From Parcubacteria group bacterium (GTDB lineage: Bacteria > Patescibacteriota > Minisyncoccia > Moranbacterales > UBA9337), in the NCBI GenBank assembly GCA_041662245.1, contig JBAZSW010000005.1:57837-121836 (forward strand): DNA of 64,000 nt, written 5' to 3'. A program made the position numbers and the translations under genes. The notes beneath the pieces were generated by a model that searched no databases, had not been told where the DNA came from, and was given only the letters and a program-made list of their open reading frames with translations. Of the stretch, positions 3,595 through 32,048 are shown one piece after another. Position 1 is the first letter of the stretch, and every line of letters begins with the position of its first letter.

Positions 3595-3867
3595 ATGAAA
3601 ATAATAGAAATCGCTAAGGCAGGAGCAATTGAAGATGCCCCAACATTTTCTCAAATAGGGGGAAGTATAGTTAGTTTTATGTTGCAGGTTTTGGGAATTT
3701 TTGCTATAATAGGTTTGACGGTTACTGCTATCTTATATTTTACAGCAGGAGGGAATGAAGAAAGAATTAAGCTAGCTAAAAAATCATTTTTTTATTCTGT
3801 AGTGGGGATACTTATAGCCTTAGGTACGATGTTATTTTTATCACAGATCAAAAATTTTTTACAATAA
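3595..3867 (+). CDS. TrbC/VirB2-like T4SS pilin-like small membrane protein (paralog 1)
   Basis: Two TM helices flank a conserved YFTAGGNEERIKLAKKS loop. It is a paralog of the downstream array. Confidence 0.55.
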   Translation: MKIIEIAKAGAIEDAPTFSQIGGSIVSFMLQVLGIFAIIGLTVTAILYFTAGGNEERIKLAKKSFFYSVVGILIALGTMLFLSQIKNFLQ

Positions 3868-3915
3868 ATATATAAAAAAATAAAATAGAAATTTTCTTTG
3901 AAAGGAGGTGAGCTT

Positions 3916-4269
3916 ATGAAAACAAAAATAAAAAAAATAGTTTATTCAATTTCCTCTCTCGGTTTAGTAGCCCCTGTTATGATTCTTGCTTACACACCGC
4001 CATCTGATACAACTCTTCCAGAGGGAAGCATTACTGCTATCGTCAAACAATTTATGACTTGGATTTTAGGAATGGTGGGATTCTTAGGAGTAATTGGCTT
4101 TGCTATTGCTGGAATTCTTTATCTTACTTCTGCTGGTGATGAAGATAGAATTGGAACAGCTAAAAAGGCAATGACTTGGTCAATTGTCGGTGTAATCGTA
4201 GCTCTTTTGGGAGTAGTGATTATTAAAGCGGCTGATTCTATGCTTAAGGGAACATCTTCTGAGTTCTAA
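3916..4269 (+). CDS. TrbC/VirB2-like T4SS pilin-like protein (paralog 2)
   Basis: RBS aaaggaggtg precedes the ATG at 3916 (the ORF track starts at 3898). Signal peptide, LYLTSAGDEDRIGTAKKAMTWSI motif, and a C-terminal ML.GTSS tail. Confidence 0.65.
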   Translation: MKTKIKKIVYSISSLGLVAPVMILAYTPPSDTTLPEGSITAIVKQFMTWILGMVGFLGVIGFAIAGILYLTSAGDEDRIGTAKKAMTWSIVGVIVALLGVVIIKAADSMLKGTSSEF

Positions 4270-4343
4270 TTTTACATAAAATTAAAAATGGGGTTATTTT
4301 GATTATTTTATTTTTTTAAAATAACCCCGCTAAAAAAAATAAA

Positions 4344-4700
4344 ATGAAAAAAATAATTTATGGTTTGATGTCAGCGGCCTTGGTACTTCCTAGTTTTGCT
4401 TTGGGTCAATGGAGTGAGGGATATAATATGGCTTCTAGCTCAGGTGTGCCAGATGGAGGAATATTGGACATAGTAACTAATATAATGGATTGGCTTCTGA
4501 TACTTTTGGGAATATTTGGAATAATTGGTTTTGTTATTTCTGGTATTCTTTATTTGACAGCAGCAGGAGATGATGATCGAATGGCATCAGCTAAAAAAGC
4601 GATGTATTGGTCTATTTTGGGGGTAATCGTAGGAATAGTAGGGTTTGTAGTTATCAAAGCAGCCGATGCTATGCTTAGTGGAACTAGTTCTACTTTTTAA
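4344..4700 (+). CDS. TrbC/VirB2-like T4SS pilin-like protein (paralog 3)
   Basis: Signal peptide; NIMDWLLILLG...LYLTAAGDDDRMASAKKAMYWSI...AADAMLSGTSSTF. Confidence 0.65.
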   Translation: MKKIIYGLMSAALVLPSFALGQWSEGYNMASSSGVPDGGILDIVTNIMDWLLILLGIFGIIGFVISGILYLTAAGDDDRMASAKKAMYWSILGVIVGIVGFVVIKAADAMLSGTSSTF

Positions 4701-4722
4701 TATTTTATAAAAAAAGTAAAAT

Positions 4723-5067
4723 ATGAAAAAAACATTATCAAAATTTTTGGTATTGGGGCTATTTTTCCCTCTCATAACTTTGGCACAATGGACTAAGCCT
4801 ACCACGACTGGTTTACCGTCAAATACGATAAGTGCAATAGTAACCAATATAATGAATTGGCTTTTGATACTGTTAGGAGCTTTTGGAATAATTGGTTTCG
4901 TTGTTTCTGGAATTCTTTATTTGACAGCGGCAGGAAGAGATGACCAAATGGAATCAGCTAAAAAGGCAATGACTTGGTCTATTATTGGTGTGATTGTGGG
5001 TTTAATTGGACTGGTCATTATTACAGCAGCCGAAGCGATGCTGGGTGCAACTAGCGCTAGGTTTTAA
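4723..5067 (+). CDS. TrbC/VirB2-like T4SS pilin-like protein (paralog 4)
   Basis: Same architecture and motif (LYLTAAGRDDQMESAKKAMTWSI). Confidence 0.65.
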   Translation: MKKTLSKFLVLGLFFPLITLAQWTKPTTTGLPSNTISAIVTNIMNWLLILLGAFGIIGFVVSGILYLTAAGRDDQMESAKKAMTWSIIGVIVGLIGLVIITAAEAMLGATSARF

Positions 5068-5108
5068 AGATTTCTACGAAATTTGTTTATTTTTTTACAC
5101 TTTAAATT

Positions 5109-5462
5109 ATGATGATTAAAAAGACATCATTAAAAATATTTAGTTTTTTTGTTTTAACGCTGCCAATGTTAGTGTCGGCTCAATACACAGCGCCAAAAGA
5201 CACGAAACTTCCCACAGGAGAATTAGCCACTATTATAACTAATATAATGAATTGGCTACTGGTAATTTTGGGAGTAATTGGAGTAATTGGTTTTGTTATT
5301 GCAGGAATTTTTTATTTAACAGCGGCGGGAAATGATGATCAAATAAGTACAGCTAAAAAGGCGATGACTTGGTCGGTTGTGGGGGTAATTGTGGGGTTAG
5401 TAGGTTTGGTAATTATTACAGCTGTTGAAACAATGTTGGGCGGGACTGATCCTAAATTTTAA
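5109..5462 (+). CDS. TrbC/VirB2-like T4SS pilin-like protein (paralog 5)
   Basis: Same architecture and motif (FYLTAAGNDDQISTAKKAMTWSV). Confidence 0.65.
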   Translation: MMIKKTSLKIFSFFVLTLPMLVSAQYTAPKDTKLPTGELATIITNIMNWLLVILGVIGVIGFVIAGIFYLTAAGNDDQISTAKKAMTWSVVGVIVGLVGLVIITAVETMLGGTDPKF

Positions 5463-5475
5463 TTTTAATTAATAT

Positions 5476-5874
5476 ATGAAAAATAAATTTGCTATATTTT
5501 TTTTATTGCTAGGATTGGTTTTTTTTGCTGGAAAAGTTTTAGCTGTGACTTGTCCCAGCTCAGGGAGTTGGGATAGTTCGTCGGGAGTCTGCATTCCTAA
5601 TAATACTGGATTACCTTCTCCAGGAGGAGATAGCCCTTTGGCAACTGTAATTAATAATGTAATGAAGTGGCTGCTTCTTATAGTAGGATCTATAGCTATC
5701 ATTGCTTTTGTGATTTCGGGTATTCAATATTTAACTTCTGCGGGAGATCAAAATGCAATTGAAAACGCCAAACGAAATATGTGGTGGTCGATTGTGGGAG
5801 TAGTAGTTGCTCTAATAGGGATGATAATTCTTAATTTTGTTTTTACGACTATTTTGGGTGGGTCTTCTTCGTAA
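5476..5874 (+). CDS. TrbC/VirB2-like T4SS pilin-like protein (paralog 6, with an extra Cys-containing N-terminal segment)
   Basis: Signal peptide; CPSSGSWDSSSGVC; QYLTSAGDQNAIENAKRNMWWSI. Confidence 0.6.
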   Translation: MKNKFAIFFLLLGLVFFAGKVLAVTCPSSGSWDSSSGVCIPNNTGLPSPGGDSPLATVINNVMKWLLLIVGSIAIIAFVISGIQYLTSAGDQNAIENAKRNMWWSIVGVVVALIGMIILNFVFTTILGGSSS

Positions 5875-5928
5875 AGTTAATTAATCTGAATTTAAGTTTA
5901 TTTTAAATAATATAAATAAAATATTAAA

Positions 5929-6564
5929 ATGAAAATTTTAAATTTTAAAAAAATAATAGCCAGTTTTCTGATGAGTATTTTTATATTTTGTGGTTCCTTT
6001 AATTTAGCTTTAGCGGCTTGTGCTACAGGAACTACGGCTAGTGGAAATATTTGTTTTGAAAACCCTTTGTCTTATAATACCGTAGATGGAATTTTAAGCG
6101 CGCTTCTTATTCATTTACAGGGGATAATCGTGGTAATTTCGATGGTTTTTATTGTGATCGGAGCTATCCTTTATATGACTTCAGCTGGAGATGAAGGAAA
6201 AATGAAAATAGCTAAAGGAGCAATTTTTGCGGCGGTGATCGGACTGGCGATTGGAATCGCGGCGCCATCATTTTTAAAAGAAATTTATACTGCCTTAGGA
6301 AAAAGTACTAGTGATAGTCTTATTTCTTCTGCTCCAGATCTGGCTACAATTGCACTTAATGTCCTTAACTTTTTGCTTAGCGTTACAGGAGTGATTGGAA
6401 TTATAATGTTGGTAGCAGCAGGAATAGCCTATATGACCGCAGCTGGAAATGAAGGTCAAATTGAAACAGCTAAAAAAATGACTACTTGGGCAATTATTGG
6501 AATTGCAGTAGCTTTGGGAGCTTTGGTAATAGTTCAACAAGTGGCTAAATTTTTCTCTACATAG
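5929..6564 (+). CDS. Tandem two-domain TrbC/VirB2-like pilin-like protein (paralog 7, internal duplication)
   Basis: Two successive TM-loop-TM modules: LYMTSAGDEGKMKIAKGAIFAAV and AYMTAAGNEGQIETAKKMTTWAI. Confidence 0.6.
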   Translation: MKILNFKKIIASFLMSIFIFCGSFNLALAACATGTTASGNICFENPLSYNTVDGILSALLIHLQGIIVVISMVFIVIGAILYMTSAGDEGKMKIAKGAIFAAVIGLAIGIAAPSFLKEIYTALGKSTSDSLISSAPDLATIALNVLNFLLSVTGVIGIIMLVAAGIAYMTAAGNEGQIETAKKMTTWAIIGIAVALGALVIVQQVAKFFST

Positions 6565-6663: not shown

Positions 6664-7809
6664 TTATTCCCGCACCTCCTTTTCGATAGTGATGGTCAAA
6701 GGATTGACCGTTGAATTTTTGAAGGCTGGCCTTCTTATCACTGAAGAATTAAATTCATCAGGTCTCATAAGGATGTTAATCCTCATTGAGAGATCCGAAT
6801 CTTTATTCATTGAAATGACGAATCCTTCTTCAGTTTTTGGAGTAATATTCTCTCCGTTATTGAGAAGGATTATGGCCCCAAAATTCATCTTCTTTTCTTG
6901 CCTGAATTCTGGTTTGCCCCCAAGGGCATTATCCCCCTGCCATGGAAATTCCGTCCATGAGTGATTACTCATGAAAAGTTGCCAGTTACCGGAAATTTTA
7001 ATCCGGTAATTTCCTTCCTCGAGTCTTTTAAGACTCAAAGGAATTTTAGCAATGCATTGGTTGTGAGCAATATCAAATTGCTCAACTTGAGAAAAGTCAA
7101 CAACCTTTTTTTCGATGACTTTCTCCCAACCGAATGTTTTTCCGTTAGGTCCCCATTCTATCATTCGAATAGGGACAAGAGCCTTGGGACTTTTCACAAA
7201 ATGACCGTGTTCATTAGATATTAACACGTAAGCCATTCCTTCGCTCCCATCATTTTGCTTTTTGCTTTCAATTCCAAGGGACATAACTTTCTGACCCTTT
7301 TTAAGAAACAGGTCTGATATTATGTTCCCATTCTCATCGTACGCCGGAGAGCTTTCTTTCATTTCTCCAAAAGTTCCGGTGTTAGACTCCGATTTCATCA
7401 TTTCTTTTTTCATTGAAATGGTGGAATCTTCGGTCCTTTTTACGAACAATTCTTTGCTACTTTTTTTGAATCCGGCGTAAGCAGGATTGTTTCTAGTGAC
7501 AAGATTGTCAATTGCAGGAAAAACTATTCCTAAAAAAACAACCTCGAAAACAAACCATACTGCCCAGATGGCGAGCAGGAAATTTCTTGCAGGCCTTATA
7601 ATGGGTATCCATATTCCCAAGGTAATCAATATAAATAGCACAAAGAAAATTTCTTTGTAAACTACTACAAATGAAAACCCAAAGATTATGCAGAAAAGAA
7701 ATAATCCCCCTAATAGTACAGGGATGATTATCCTTGTGGTAGGACCAGAAATAAAACTCCAGACGTAACCAATCAAAGCGCCGATAAAAGAAAAAATAGT
7801 TCTAAACAT
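6664..7809 (-). CDS. Hypothetical integral membrane protein (4 N-terminal TM helices plus a ~250-aa soluble domain)
   Basis: Long ORF with a hydrophobic N-terminus and no recognisable motif. Confidence 0.5.
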   Translation of the reverse strand: MFRTIFSFIGALIGYVWSFISGPTTRIIIPVLLGGLFLFCIIFGFSFVVVYKEIFFVLFILITLGIWIPIIRPARNFLLAIWAVWFVFEVVFLGIVFPAIDNLVTRNNPAYAGFKKSSKELFVKRTEDSTISMKKEMMKSESNTGTFGEMKESSPAYDENGNIISDLFLKKGQKVMSLGIESKKQNDGSEGMAYVLISNEHGHFVKSPKALVPIRMIEWGPNGKTFGWEKVIEKKVVDFSQVEQFDIAHNQCIAKIPLSLKRLEEGNYRIKISGNWQLFMSNHSWTEFPWQGDNALGGKPEFRQEKKMNFGAIILLNNGENITPKTEEGFVISMNKDSDLSMRINILMRPDEFNSSVIRRPAFKNSTVNPLTITIEKEVRE

Positions 7810-14996: not shown

Positions 14997-15518
14997 ATGA
15001 AAATCGCTATCATTTCCGATGTGCACAATAACGAAACAAACTTGAAAAAAGTTTTAAATTATTGCGAGCAAAAGAAAATTAAAAAAATTATTTGTTGCGG
15101 AGATTTGGCTTCGGATGAGACTTTGGATTTTATGACGGATAATTTTGGCGGAGAAATTTTTTATACTTTTGGCAATATGGATAACGAGCAGTTGCGAGAA
15201 TTTCAATTCGTAGATGTTTATAAAAATGTAAATTTGTTCAAAAAATTTGGAGAATTAGAGTTAGATAGTAAAAAAATAGCGTTTGTTCACTATCCGCGAG
15301 AAGCAGAGGGTCTGGCTAGAACCGGTAAATACGATTTTGTTTTTTATGGACACACTCACAAGCCTTGGATTTCTCACCTAGATGCGACAGGAGATCATGG
15401 AAAATGCGTTTTGTTAAATCCCGGTAATGTGGCGGGAGAAATTTATCTGCCTACTTTTGCCACGTGGAACACTAAGGATGATAATTTTGAATTAATTAGA
15501 GTGCATGATTTAAAGTAA
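14997..15518 (+). CDS. Metallophosphoesterase (YfcE/MJ0936 family phosphodiesterase)
   Basis: ISDVHNN, CGDL, GNMD and GHTH motifs. Confidence 0.8.
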   Translation: MKIAIISDVHNNETNLKKVLNYCEQKKIKKIICCGDLASDETLDFMTDNFGGEIFYTFGNMDNEQLREFQFVDVYKNVNLFKKFGELELDSKKIAFVHYPREAEGLARTGKYDFVFYGHTHKPWISHLDATGDHGKCVLLNPGNVAGEIYLPTFATWNTKDDNFELIRVHDLK

Positions 15519-15527
15519 TAAAAAATA
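15486..15527. repeat. 42-bp direct repeat, left copy (3' end of the metallophosphoesterase gene plus spacer)
   Basis: tttgaattaattagagtgcatgatttaaaRtaataaaaaata. The second copy is at 16638-16679 with one mismatch. Confidence 0.85.
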
Positions 15528-16670
15528 ATGACTGATTTAACAAAAGTAAAAGCTTCAATGATATTAGCTTCGGCTAGATTTTGGGTAATAATTGTTGTTT
15601 TATATTTAACGACGAAAAATTTATCGCAAGAACAAATATATCAATCAATCGGATTTTATTATCTCGCCTCTATGATTTTTGAGTACCCCACTGGAGTTAT
15701 TGGTGATTATTTTTCACATAAAATTTCTGTAATTTGGGGATATTTAATCATTGCACTAGCTATGATTCTTTTTGTTGTTTCAACGACATTCTTAAATATT
15801 ACACTTGTTTATGTCATCTATGCGATTGGTGCAGCTCTCATCTCAGGAAGTGATACGGCTCTTCTTCATGCTGTATCTAAAAATTTTAAGAATGACATGT
15901 CTCAAGTGAGGATATATTCAACCCTGATTTCTGCTGGAGCTCTCGGTGTTGGGGGATGGCTAGGGTCGATAGATTTGAGATATCCATTTTATTTTAATGT
16001 TGTTTTCTTTTTGGGAGCTATCATTTTTCTCTTAAGTGTCAAAAGCAAAAATCAAGAAAAAACAACAGGAAATATATTCGCATTGGCTAAACATGGAATT
16101 TCTTATACTTTTTCAGTTAAAGAACTTCTTCATATAGTACTAGTCTCTTCATTGATAAGCTCTTTTTATTTGAATATTAAATGGTTTTACAATCCTTTAT
16201 TTTTGGCATTAGATATAAATTTAAAGTTCTGGGGTGTTTTGGGAGGAATTTCTATCTTATCTATTATGATGGGAACGTACATATATAAGAAAGTTCCAGA
16301 AAAGAGCATATATCTTTATATGTTTTTATTTATCGGTTCTTTAATTCTAATGGGATGTACTAATTTATTGTGGGTTTCTATGGTAGGTTTTTTTGTTGTT
16401 AACTTTATTAGAGGTTTCTTGGAAACTAAAATAGAAGTAGATATTAATAGGGCTATTAAATCAGAGGTAAGAGCTAGTGTATTATCATTTAGAAGTTTTT
16501 TGACTAGATTTGGAACATATATAATCGTTCTTATTTCGGGTTATTTTTTGCAAAGGTATTCTTTTCAAATGCTGATGTTTATCTTGGCTGGAATTATTTT
16601 TGTTGTAAGTTTTTATTCATTGATAGTAATTAGAAAGTTTGAATTAATTAGAGTGCATGATTTAAAATAA
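15528..16670 (+). CDS. MFS-type transporter (about 12 TM helices); its last 9 codons are supplied by the duplicated 3' end of the upstream gene
   Basis: Multiple TM segments. The C-terminal ELIRVHDLK is identical to the C-terminus of the phosphoesterase. Confidence 0.65.
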   Translation: MTDLTKVKASMILASARFWVIIVVLYLTTKNLSQEQIYQSIGFYYLASMIFEYPTGVIGDYFSHKISVIWGYLIIALAMILFVVSTTFLNITLVYVIYAIGAALISGSDTALLHAVSKNFKNDMSQVRIYSTLISAGALGVGGWLGSIDLRYPFYFNVVFFLGAIIFLLSVKSKNQEKTTGNIFALAKHGISYTFSVKELLHIVLVSSLISSFYLNIKWFYNPLFLALDINLKFWGVLGGISILSIMMGTYIYKKVPEKSIYLYMFLFIGSLILMGCTNLLWVSMVGFFVVNFIRGFLETKIEVDINRAIKSEVRASVLSFRSFLTRFGTYIIVLISGYFLQRYSFQMLMFILAGIIFVVSFYSLIVIRKFELIRVHDLK

Positions 16671-16679
16671 TAAAAAATA
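16638..16679. repeat. 42-bp direct repeat, right copy
   Basis: See 15486-15527. Confidence 0.85.
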
Positions 16680-16680
16680 T

Positions 16681-16968
16681 ATGAAACAGTAGTGCGTCTA
16701 TATCTTAGCCAGTCAAACAAAAGTTTTATATATTGGAGTAACTGGAAATTTACCGAGAAGGATTCAGGAGCATAAAAATAAATCAATAGAAGGATTTACA
16801 AAAAAATATAATTGCACAAGCTTGGTATATTTTCAGCAAACAGAAAATGTAATGAGTGCACTGGATAGAGAAAAGCAACTTAAGAAATGGAGAAGAAAGA
16901 AGAAAATAGATTTAATAGAGAAAACTAATCAGAATTGGGATGATCTAAATGAAAATTTGGGCTACTAA
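16681..16968 (+). pseudogene. GIY-YIG nuclease family (UPF0213/YhbQ-like) gene with an in-frame TAG at codon 4 (where family members have Trp)
   Basis: Translation is MKQ*CVYILASQTKVLYIGVTGNLPRRIQEH...KQLKKWRRKKKIDLI. The GIY/YIG and R..EH motifs are present. There is no alternative start downstream of the TAG. Confidence 0.6.
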
Positions 16969-17043
16969 TTTTGAGATCTTTCGACTCCACTATCGTTACG
17001 CTCAAGATGACATGCTTTGATTATTTTGTACCAATATTTGGTC

Positions 17044-17212
17044 TGTCATTCCGACCGAACAAAGCTTTGTACTCAAAGATTTGGAAGTGGAGGAATCTCA
17101 GATGTTGTATAATTAAGAAGTGGAAATAATAGCTTGAGATCTCTGTGCCACCGCTAAAGCTTTAGCGACACGCGGTCCATGCATAAATTTATTTAGTTGA
17201 GATGACATTCTT
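17044..17212 (+). mobile_element. MITE-like repeat element, copy A (TIR tgtcattccgacc.../...gagatgacat)
   Basis: Terminal ~60 bp are shared with 31663-31862 and, in inverse orientation, with 30835-30985. Includes the cgctaaagctttagcg hairpin. Confidence 0.6.
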
Positions 17213-30834: not shown

Positions 30835-30985
30835 TGTCATTTTGACCGGATAAATTTATGCCTATCATGTTGAATAACATGGTACTCATAAATTTAGGAG
30901 TGAAGAAATCTACATATTTTATAGCTGAGATTCCTCCATTTCCAAATATTTGAGTACAAAGATTTATCCAGTCGGAATGACACAC
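30835..30985 (-). mobile_element. MITE-like repeat element, copy C (complete unit with ~22-bp terminal inverted repeats, inverse orientation)
   Basis: The left arm ctgtcattttgaccggataaatttatg matches the reverse complement of the right arm ttatccagtcggaatgacacac. The arms also match the ends of copies A and B. Confidence 0.6.
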
Positions 30986-31043
30986 ATGAAGTATTTGTTT
31001 TAATGTTTTTATTTATAATTCATCCCATTAATGTAAGATTCAT

Positions 31044-31649
31044 ATGACCAAATATATTTTAAATTCAGGTAATGCGAAAAATTTTCCCCAAAAGGAAATT
31101 GCTTTTATTAACGAAATATTAGCTGATTTCAAACTAGGCAGTGAAGTAAAAATTCTATATTGCTTTTTTTCTCAAGCACGGGGAGGTTGGGAAGAAAAAT
31201 ATGAAAAATATAAAGAAAGGTTTTTGCAATTAGCTGGTTCAAAATTTAAATTAACTTTTAAACTAGCTTTCCCAGAAAAATTTGAAGAGCAATCTCAATC
31301 TAGCGATGTTATCTTGGTTCAGGGTGGAGATGATTATCTTTTGCAATTTTGGCTTAGTAAATTTGATTTGCCAAAAATTTGGAATGGGAAAATTGTAGCA
31401 ACCAGTTCGGCTGGATCAGATGCTCTAGCTAATTCATTTTGGACTTGTGATTGGCGAAAGAGTTTAAATGGATTAAATATTTTGCCAATTAAATTTATTC
31501 CTCATTACAAATCTGAGACTTATGGATTGGATGATTCGCGTGGACCGATTGACTGGGAAAAAGCTTATCAAGAAATTTCTCAATACGGAGATAAAAACCT
31601 GCCAATTTATGCATTAGAGGAAGGTGATTTTATTGTTTTTAGGCAATAG
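31044..31649 (+). CDS. Peptidase S51 family protein (peptidase E / type-1 glutamine-amidotransferase-like)
   Basis: ILNSGN...VQGGDDYLL...ATSSAGSDALANSF, with the Ser nucleophile in SAGS context. Confidence 0.6.
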   Translation: MTKYILNSGNAKNFPQKEIAFINEILADFKLGSEVKILYCFFSQARGGWEEKYEKYKERFLQLAGSKFKLTFKLAFPEKFEEQSQSSDVILVQGGDDYLLQFWLSKFDLPKIWNGKIVATSSAGSDALANSFWTCDWRKSLNGLNILPIKFIPHYKSETYGLDDSRGPIDWEKAYQEISQYGDKNLPIYALEEGDFIVFRQ

Positions 31650-31662
31650 GATAATCGGAAAT

Positions 31663-31862
31663 TGTCATTTCGACCGGACAAAGCTGTGTACTCAAAGATT
31701 TGGAAGTGGAGAAATCTAGTGTTACGTATAATGGATGGCTATTAATTTGAGATTTCTGTGCCACCGCTAAAGCTTTAGCGACACGCGGTCCGTGCATGAA
31801 TTTCCGATTACCCCAGTTATTCAACGGAGCAGGCAGAAATTTATTTAGTCGAGAGGACATGT
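31663..31862 (+). mobile_element. MITE-like repeat element, copy B
   Basis: About 85% identical to copy A over its ends, with a 33-bp insertion. Confidence 0.6.
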
Positions 31863-32048
31863 TTTTATCAATTTGCACCAATGTTATTGATTTTTCTTTT
31901 ATTTTTCTCTATTATAATTAGAGGAGTAAATTAACAATTTATAAAAATATCAACTCAAGTAAGAACAATGTTGTCTTCTCAAGAAAACAGAGAGGTTTGG
32001 TAGAATAGGGAAATAAAGGAAGAAAATCTTAAATTATGGAGAGAGGAT

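Follow-up and report, generated by a model that had tools for sequence, protein, structure and literature searches.

Paired hairpin repeats in a Moranbacteria-like genome as probable targets of a small GIY-YIG nuclease of the Ssn type

The SsnA protein of Neisseria meningitidis, described by Chenal et al. (Nat Commun 2025; PMC11893778), is a single-domain GIY-YIG protein of 94 amino acids (aa) that belongs to cd10448 and has Y6, Y17 and E64 as its catalytic residues. It binds an oriented hairpin, the NTS (CGTCATTCCCGCGMAVGCGGGAATCYRG), as single-stranded DNA (ssDNA) only and on one strand only, and it nicks a few nucleotides (nt) upstream of the NTS while ignoring double-stranded DNA (dsDNA) and RNA. 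The head nucleotides of the NTS and the C that follows its palindrome are critical, whereas the loop is dispensable and can be extended. There are hundreds of NTS copies, mainly intergenic and clustered around genes; ssnA is itself flanked by its own repeats, which in other phyla are called Ssn-related motifs (SRMs). The Ssn system reduces transformation by NTS-containing DNA, and in Neisseria a "repeat-gene-repeat" layout lowers the replacement of the enclosed gene by transformation (PMC11893778). Here we analyze a 64-kb stretch of contig JBAZSW010000005.1 from a Parcubacteria group bacterium (hereafter the window; coordinates are window positions unless a locus, designated L and a number, is named) that contains three repeat elements, A, B and C. 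We conclude, with good confidence, that each of these elements is a pair of SRMs, and that the SRMs are hairpin signals for a small GIY-YIG Ssn nuclease encoded in the same window.

The two systems agree in many respects. Both have a single-domain GIY-YIG protein of about 94 to 95 aa, and oriented hairpin repeats belonging to the system flank the gene that encodes it; in both, the head of the repeat is (C/T)GTCAT, the stem is ATTCC/GGAAT, a C follows the palindrome and the loop tolerates extension; and in both, the copies are numerous and mainly intergenic, with a recurring repeat-gene-repeat layout. They differ in that the host here belongs to the Candidate Phyla Radiation (CPR; Patescibacteria), which is absent from the founding paper, as are pairs of hairpin units (PMC11893778). 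The hairpin units in the window, which we call arms, are 55 nt long rather than about 28 nt and have an AT-rich stem, an invariant GA/GA, a nested 10-bp hairpin and further modules. In addition, heads-out pairs are the common form here, and the window ssnA has a premature stop. This is, then, a kind of system described in 2025, here with a divergent motif architecture and in a new host lineage, and it places an Ssn/SRM system in the CPR (Moranbacteria-like), which the founding paper does not discuss.

Three pairs of hairpin arms and their family

An earlier note on this DNA had reported three copies of an inverted-repeat element, and all three are present where it placed them, within 3 nt: A at 17044-17207, C at 30835-30982 and B at 31663-31859. 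Their relatedness is far beyond chance. The window contains the terminal 20-mer TGTCATTCCGACCGRAYAAA (at most 3 mismatches) 4 times, where 0.01 would be expected, and an inner 30-mer 3 times, where the expectation is 0. Two collinear blocks are common to A and B, for which about 85% identity had been claimed: one of 70 nt at 84% identity and one of 64 nt at 91%. The indel that separates them consists of 39 extra nt in B and not of 33. The internal hairpin attributed to both, CGCTAAAGCTTTAGCG, was found in A (17152) and in B (31765). For copy C, the best match to A and B lies on the minus strand (61 nt, 89% complementary); the copy itself folds into a nearly perfect nested palindrome (z about -8, either strand).

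The ends had been read as 22-bp imperfect terminal inverted repeats (TIRs). The repeated ends are instead self-folding arms of about 55 nt, and A, B and C each consist of two arms with their heads outward around a variable centre of 16-38 nt. An arm begins with the non-palindromic head TGTC, continues with ATYYC-GA-C ... G-GA-GRRAT, of which the outermost part is a 5-bp basal stem, and closes with CT(C), giving the tail ATCT. Its inner part is a nested 10-bp hairpin, for example AAATTTATG-TACT-CATAAATTT, that sits in the tolerant "loop".

Our alignment comprises 53 distinct arms, taken from the window and from 40 other loci. T1, G2, T3 and C4, the tandem GA/GA and the C54 that follows the stem are invariant (53/53), and A5 and T6 are nearly so. 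Both helices together are paired in 98.2% of cells, as compared with 89.4% in column shuffles and no more than 55% in slid controls; the basal helix alone is 99.4% paired and has 2 covarying pairs. Double-sided changes were found at 7 pairs, examples being ATTCC/GGAAT, ATTTC/GAAAT and ATCTC/GAGAT in the basal stem and UA/AU/CG in the inner one. Covariation, which the earlier note had proposed to check, is thus strong across the 53 arms, and at the level of the single arm. Because the helices pair and covary, the arm is a self-folding unit and more than one half of a TIR. G·T occupies 21 cells on the TGTC-headed strand and A·C 2, an excess that fits folding of the TGTC-headed strand only, and hence of opposite strands within one arm pair; the two arms of an element fold best on opposite strands. 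The traits that give the NTS its orientation, a conserved non-palindromic head (HGTCWY) and a C right after the palindrome, are present.

All of the window arms are intergenic. The three canonical arms, each 55 nt long, are the left arm of A (17044-17098, plus strand; 58.8 bits with nhmmer), the right arm of C (30928-30982, minus strand; 58.8 bits) and the left arm of B (31663-31717, plus strand; 56.0 bits); all three satisfy the closure rule and have a row in the alignment. In the right arm of A (17137-17207, minus strand), which is of the R type, the inner hairpin is deleted and a GC-rich module that contains CGCTAAAGCTTTAGCG is inserted (about 17145-17177). The left arm of C (30835-30911, plus strand; 35.1 bits) has one G·T pair in its basal stem, and its inner-hairpin loop contains a 22-nt hairpin module (GTTGAATAAC core, 30861-30882). 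The right arm of B (31750-31859, minus strand) is degenerate, with a TGTCC head and a broken basal stem, and holds both nested modules (about 31758-31790 and 31810-31836). The GTTGAATAAC module occupies the same inner-hairpin loop in C (left arm), in B (right arm) and in the L029 ortholog of C. The GC-rich module, GACCGCGTGTCGCTNTAGCTTTAGCGGTGGCRCA, is a separate repeat family (17145-17177, 31758-31790, L004 1031, L025 2550 and L040 2033) that nests in SRM arms and also in a different palindrome, CTCCTCCCCTTT...AAGGGGAGGAG.

Further copies, for which a genome-wide search had been suggested, do exist. One pattern scan over species-representative genomes identified 41 further loci, 38 of them in metagenome-assembled genomes (MAGs) of Candidatus Moranbacteria/Moraniibacteriota, with 17 from GW2011_GWF2_35_54 alone, and the arm profile, run over the 64-kb window and 288 kb of fetched loci, gave 85 matches. 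Besides single arms, there are heads-out pairs of 123-150 nt and heads-in pairs whose members are separated by a conserved 31-nt spacer (ATTATTTTGCACCAGT); a shorter arm type, TGTCATCTCGAGCG...GTCGAGAGATCTC, is also found in combination with them.

These arrangements bear on whether A, B and C are classical miniature inverted-repeat transposable elements (MITEs), that is, deletion derivatives of a DDE-type insertion sequence (IS) that are moved in trans by a transposase that recognizes the TIRs and makes target-site duplications (TSDs). Inverted ends, small size, several copies, intergenic sites and presence or absence between related genomes are all MITE-like, and with Correia elements and other bacterial MITEs the elements share a length of about 100-200 bp, long inverted ends and intergenic placement. 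Those elements, however, have TSDs and transposase-type TIRs, and here we found neither: no TSD of at least 2 nt was present in any of 19 elements, the mean match length of 0.42 being no better than the 0.40 of mismatched flanks, and the arms are autonomous hairpin units that occur singly and in head-in as well as head-out pairs. The sole coding relative, a full-length unit, carries a GIY-YIG gene and no transposase, and every arm self-folds with covariation, which TIRs do not need. Because TSDs are lacking and arms occur singly, we conclude that these are not classical TIR/TSD MITEs, and we consider that origin very improbable. The description of a multi-copy inverted-repeat family without a transposase is nonetheless a genuine one.

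The spacer has a distribution of its own. In the window, the conserved 31-nt outer spacer at 17013-17043 (ATTATTTTGTACCAAT core) lies between two TGTC heads, and a spacer-like sequence at 31860-31890 (ATCAATTTGCACCAAT) lies 3' of copy B with no arm following it. The same ATTATTTTGCACCAGT core is found at L004 3676-3707, L036 about 2131-2161 and L037 about 7395-7425, always on the head side of the arms and mostly between two heads. If the Ssn model is true, the cuts on both strands would fall inside this spacer.

Two observations concern the range of the family. On twelve putative viral contigs (IMG/VR; L051-L062), there are arms that agree with those described here in head, 5-bp stem, tandem GA and tail and that have GC-rich interiors; no CPR-type ssnA was detected on these twelve contigs. 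One contig labelled Clostridiales (MGOW01000074; L032) is 100% identical over 6387 nt to a UBA9337 Moraniibacteriota locus (L015), and it is probably a mis-binned Moranbacteria contig.

An ssnA homolog beside the arms

A gene of 95 codons at 16681-16968 (plus strand), in the same window as the copy C/S51 region and 13 kb from it, is a homolog of ssnA that we identified with tblastn. It encodes a single-domain GIY-YIG nuclease (Pfam PF01541, 1.7e-15) in which the domain spans residues 3-76 and no second domain is present; its relatives are 93-96 aa long, and the protein at L016 is 78% identical to it. NCBIfam and PDB sequence searches with the window protein gave no match. For the comparison with SsnA we used the gonococcal ortholog and not the N. 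meningitidis protein. The window protein finds this 94-aa N. gonorrhoeae ortholog by tblastn with an E value of 2e-11 in a 7.3-Gb database, where the homology cut-off of the founding paper was E < 1e-10, and the pairwise alignment has 52% identity over 88 aa (E 7e-30). The catalytic residues Y6, Y17 and E64 of the gonococcal ortholog align with Y7, Y17 and E64 of the window protein.

Directly after the ssnA stop codon, a closure-rule scan found a short SRM-type arm (R2) at 16974-17012 on the minus strand, TGTCATCTTGAGCG...GTCGAAAGATCT, with its head at 17012; the 31-nt spacer follows, and then copy A. Neither this fourth, short arm nor the adjoining GIY-YIG gene had been tied to the repeat family in the earlier note. 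The R2 arm type is also found 3' of ssnA in L042, and it terminates many elements at other loci. No 5' arm is present at the window ssnA, which is therefore flanked on its 3' side only, whereas flanking is two-sided in L016, L004, L042, L044/L047 and L048. An intact GIY-YIG gene of about 95 aa lies between these same left and right arms in L016 (1323-1748) and L004 (3708-4156); in L042 the left arm beside the gene is long and the right one short. The more distant homologs in L044/L047 have arms with a TGTCAT head, the same tail and a compensating stem, ATCCTGA/TCAGGAT. In L048, where the Patescibacteria protein is 59% identical, a minimal 28-nt arm, TGTCATTCCGACCTAAGTGGAGGAATCT, lies upstream of the gene and an inverted one lies inside its 3' end. 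The gonococcal ssnA is likewise flanked by CGTCATTCCCGCGCAGGCGGGAATCTAGA repeats (NTS copies), which include a heads-out pair (L063 387-492), and the window arms and the NTS have head and tail in common, GTCATTCC...GGAATCT.

Several points weigh against assigning the window repeats to an Ssn system. The published SRM search sequence, HGTCWYN(0-2)YYVSBRHN(0-5)WNVSBRGN(0-2)RNCYNB, has 0 matches in the window on either strand. It misses the window arms because of their AT-rich stem, their tandem GA and a nested loop longer than 5 nt. A relaxed scan for a 6-bp stem gave matches at chance level only (7 found, 8.7 expected) because the stem of a real arm consists of 5 bp and GA. Two of the arms, the left one of C and the right one of B, are degenerate, and 13 of the 21 G·T cells stand at one pair and so possibly reflect one inherited change. 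Finally, codon 4 of the window ssnA is changed from TAT to TAG (16690-16692), and the NCBI model of the gene, 88 aa from an ATC start, leaves out the first catalytic Tyr. Because of this stop codon and the annotated product, the local copy may, as judged from its sequence, be inactive, or may bind without cutting. The orthologs in L016, L004 and L042 are intact.

The mismatch with the published search sequence also has a wider meaning. It reveals a target architecture that SRM censuses by the published motif would miss, in which the stem is AT-rich, the tandem GA is invariant and the loops are long and nested; such censuses therefore undercount the family. In their long loops, the natural arms agree with the in-vitro result that extending the loop does not abolish the signal. 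Apart from the Ssn paper, we found no literature that links GIY-YIG to MITE, REPIN or COG2827 or that contains the literal repeat strings.

The REP/RAYT analogy and the IS-like look of the repeat-ssnA-repeat unit were already raised in the discussion of the Ssn paper (PMC11893778), and we weighed whether the arms might be a REP/BIME-type repeat that is served by a RAYT, with the GIY-YIG gene as a bystander. As in the REP/REPIN-RAYT systems and BIMEs of Proteobacteria, a small nuclease-type gene is flanked by inverted hairpin repeats, the repeats are dispersed as singlets and inverted doublets with conserved linkers between units, ssDNA hairpin recognition would be involved and TSDs are absent; the logic of hairpin units, inverted pairs, mosaic linkers and fixed positions with dynamic content is the same. 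The enzyme, however, is of the GIY-YIG type and not an HUH/Y1 transposase, and a GIY-YIG nuclease gene lies between the arms at three Moranbacteria loci with this arm type and at two more distant loci with other types. The tag is TGTC and not GTAG, the head TGTC resembles the CGTC of the NTS, the protein is homologous to SsnA, and SRM mobility is putative. No HUH/Y1 gene was found beside any arm in the fetched loci, whole genomes not having been searched. We therefore hold it very unlikely that a RAYT serves these arms, and we retain the GIY-YIG protein as their probable partner.

Two neighborhoods of GIY-YIG genes deserve mention. A 45-nt direct repeat (96% identical; 15483-15527 and 16635-16679) brackets a 1152-bp segment (15528-16679) with an MFS_1 transporter open reading frame (ORF); this ORF and the one upstream have an identical FELIRVHDLK* tail, and the segment is absent from the syntenic L004. 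It looks like an insertion or duplication adjoining ssnA. At L009 (380-870), a distant GIY-YIG gene (39% identical) has the partial 5' half of a tRNA on one side and, on the other, a complete tRNA that shares its 5' sequence, which gives the appearance of integration into a tRNA gene.

The peptidase S51 locus and repeat dynamics

Copies C and B lie on either side of a Peptidase_S51 gene (31044-31649, plus strand; Pfam PF03575), C 61 nt upstream of the gene and B beginning 13 nt past its stop codon. The Pfam match establishes the gene, and C matches B best on the minus strand, so that the inverted bracket reported around it stands. Two related elements in inverted relative orientation around one gene have the look of a composite transposon that mobilizes the peptidase gene, as the earlier note had suggested. 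In GW2011_GWF2_35_54, however, two adjacent stretches of one contig (L029 and L001) contain argS, an arm pair, the S51 gene and a single arm, and the order argS-element-S51-element-downstream is syntenic with the window at 77-84% nucleotide identity. The comparison of the argS and S51 region with a related genome, which had also been proposed, thus showed a conserved order in which the elements differ, only a single arm being present on the 3' side in GW2011_GWF2_35_54. The identical S51 protein was found in one other context only (L050, Logan SRR18595301 contig, 6347 nt), with the same surroundings, and TSDs are absent. Because the order is syntenic in a second species, we conclude that the bracket is ancestral and that the S51 gene is a resident gene and not cargo; a mobile composite is the least probable of the explanations that we considered. 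L050 comes from the same strain but was assembled independently, and it stops inside copy B, 67 nt past the S51 stop codon, which suggests that these repeats break short-read assemblies.

The content of conserved sites changes between genomes. The ortholog of C in L029 aligns better when reversed (score 139.5 as compared with 101) with its flanks unchanged; because of this better reverse alignment, we place its module-bearing arm on the other side. At the site of copy B, L001 has a single arm where the window has a pair. Upstream of the gene at about 39685, L036 has an arm-spacer-arm block of about 230 nt, L020 has a three-arm array and the window has none, and the flanks align cleanly. For an "empty site" in the comparison of L025 with the window, divergence is too great for exact boundaries. 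Conserved sites with changing arm content match the behavior of arrays of neisserial intergenic mosaic elements (NIMEs). These are dRS3-RS-dRS3 units, regarded as Neisseria-specific, that keep their positions while their content varies (Bentley et al. 2007, PMC1797815). They share with the window elements inverted pairs of hairpin repeats around a variable spacer, and arrays at syntenic sites whose content varies between genomes; they differ in having no sequence relation to them beyond head and stem, and the arrays here are short, with 1-3 arms.

The inversion of C is also relevant to the proposal, put forward in the earlier note as an alternative, that the family consists of small structured RNAs or of hairpins that act at the RNA level (terminators, mRNA stabilizers or RNase targets), as with REP or Correia elements. 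Strong predicted folds, covariation that includes G·U-type pairs and the location at gene ends are what such RNAs would lead one to expect. An element that is flipped between unchanged flanks, as C is relative to its ortholog, speaks against it, as does the finding that in both arms it is the TGTC-headed strand that tolerates wobble pairs, which means opposite strands within one element. There was no Rfam match at gathering thresholds over the whole window, and only chance-level matches at E values up to 10 around the elements; a scan for tRNA and tmRNA genes found none; and a promoter and terminator scan around C, the S51 gene and B yielded promoter-like matches at chance level and neither a terminator within the elements nor a terminator-like T-tract. 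The homologous Neisseria repeat, moreover, is bound as ssDNA and not as RNA (PMC11893778). The proposal thus gained no support from the Rfam search, the opposite-strand arm folds or the ssDNA-acting Neisseria homolog, and we regard an RNA family as improbable, although a secondary effect at the RNA level is possible.

We return to the arms as SRMs and to how they would act, for which the Neisseria system is our guide. When DNA turns single-stranded, as incoming transforming DNA or during replication or repair, the TGTC-headed strand would fold. By homology with SsnA and the NTS, Ssn would bind this hairpin and nick a few nt 5' of the head, and it would ignore dsDNA and RNA. A heads-out pair would offer one target on each strand. 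The C-S51-B layout would then be a repeat-gene-repeat arrangement in which incoming homologous ssDNA is shortened and the enclosed gene is, again by homology, less often replaced. CPR bacteria are thought to rely on DNA uptake. What the sequences themselves show is the anatomy of the arms, their covariation, the extent of the family, its association with ssnA genes, the homology of both protein and motif, and the indel and flip polymorphism; we infer ssDNA cleavage, the biological role and the mode of spread.

As for that spread, it is probably tied to the IS-like arm-ssnA-arm unit. A more speculative idea, to which we give a limited chance, is that the arm pairs are REPIN-like non-autonomous mobile units that an SsnA-family nuclease spreads and flips by way of ssDNA and that land by preference in the loops of hairpins already in place. 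The modules nested exactly at loop positions, the block of about 230 nt that is present in L036 and absent from the window, the inversion of C in place and the single arm in place of a pair at the B site are all compatible with mobile units of this kind, and are not proof of them. If the idea is true, these cases would provide evidence, for the first time, of the way in which SRM/NTS repeats multiply, and the system would be a GIY-YIG-based counterpart of RAYT transposition in CPR bacteria. Arms that are gained, lost, flipped and nested at conserved sites in any event provide concrete cases in which to consider repeat spread and the gating of recombination around genes. For the annotation of CPR MAGs, the family accounts for a class of artifacts, namely spurious small ORFs and assembly breaks.

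Two groups of sequences elsewhere in the window are distinct from those described above. Three other short intergenic repeat pairs, 93-96% identical, are found at 59995-60048/63120-63173, 8648-8694/9413-9459 and 61357-61424/63864-63931; one of them has a GC-rich hairpin, CTAAAACCGAGCTCGCGAGGTTTTAG, and all three are unrelated to the SRM arms. At 3736-6500, eight tandem paralogous small genes, spaced about 260-440 nt apart, share a common conserved block of 71 nt.

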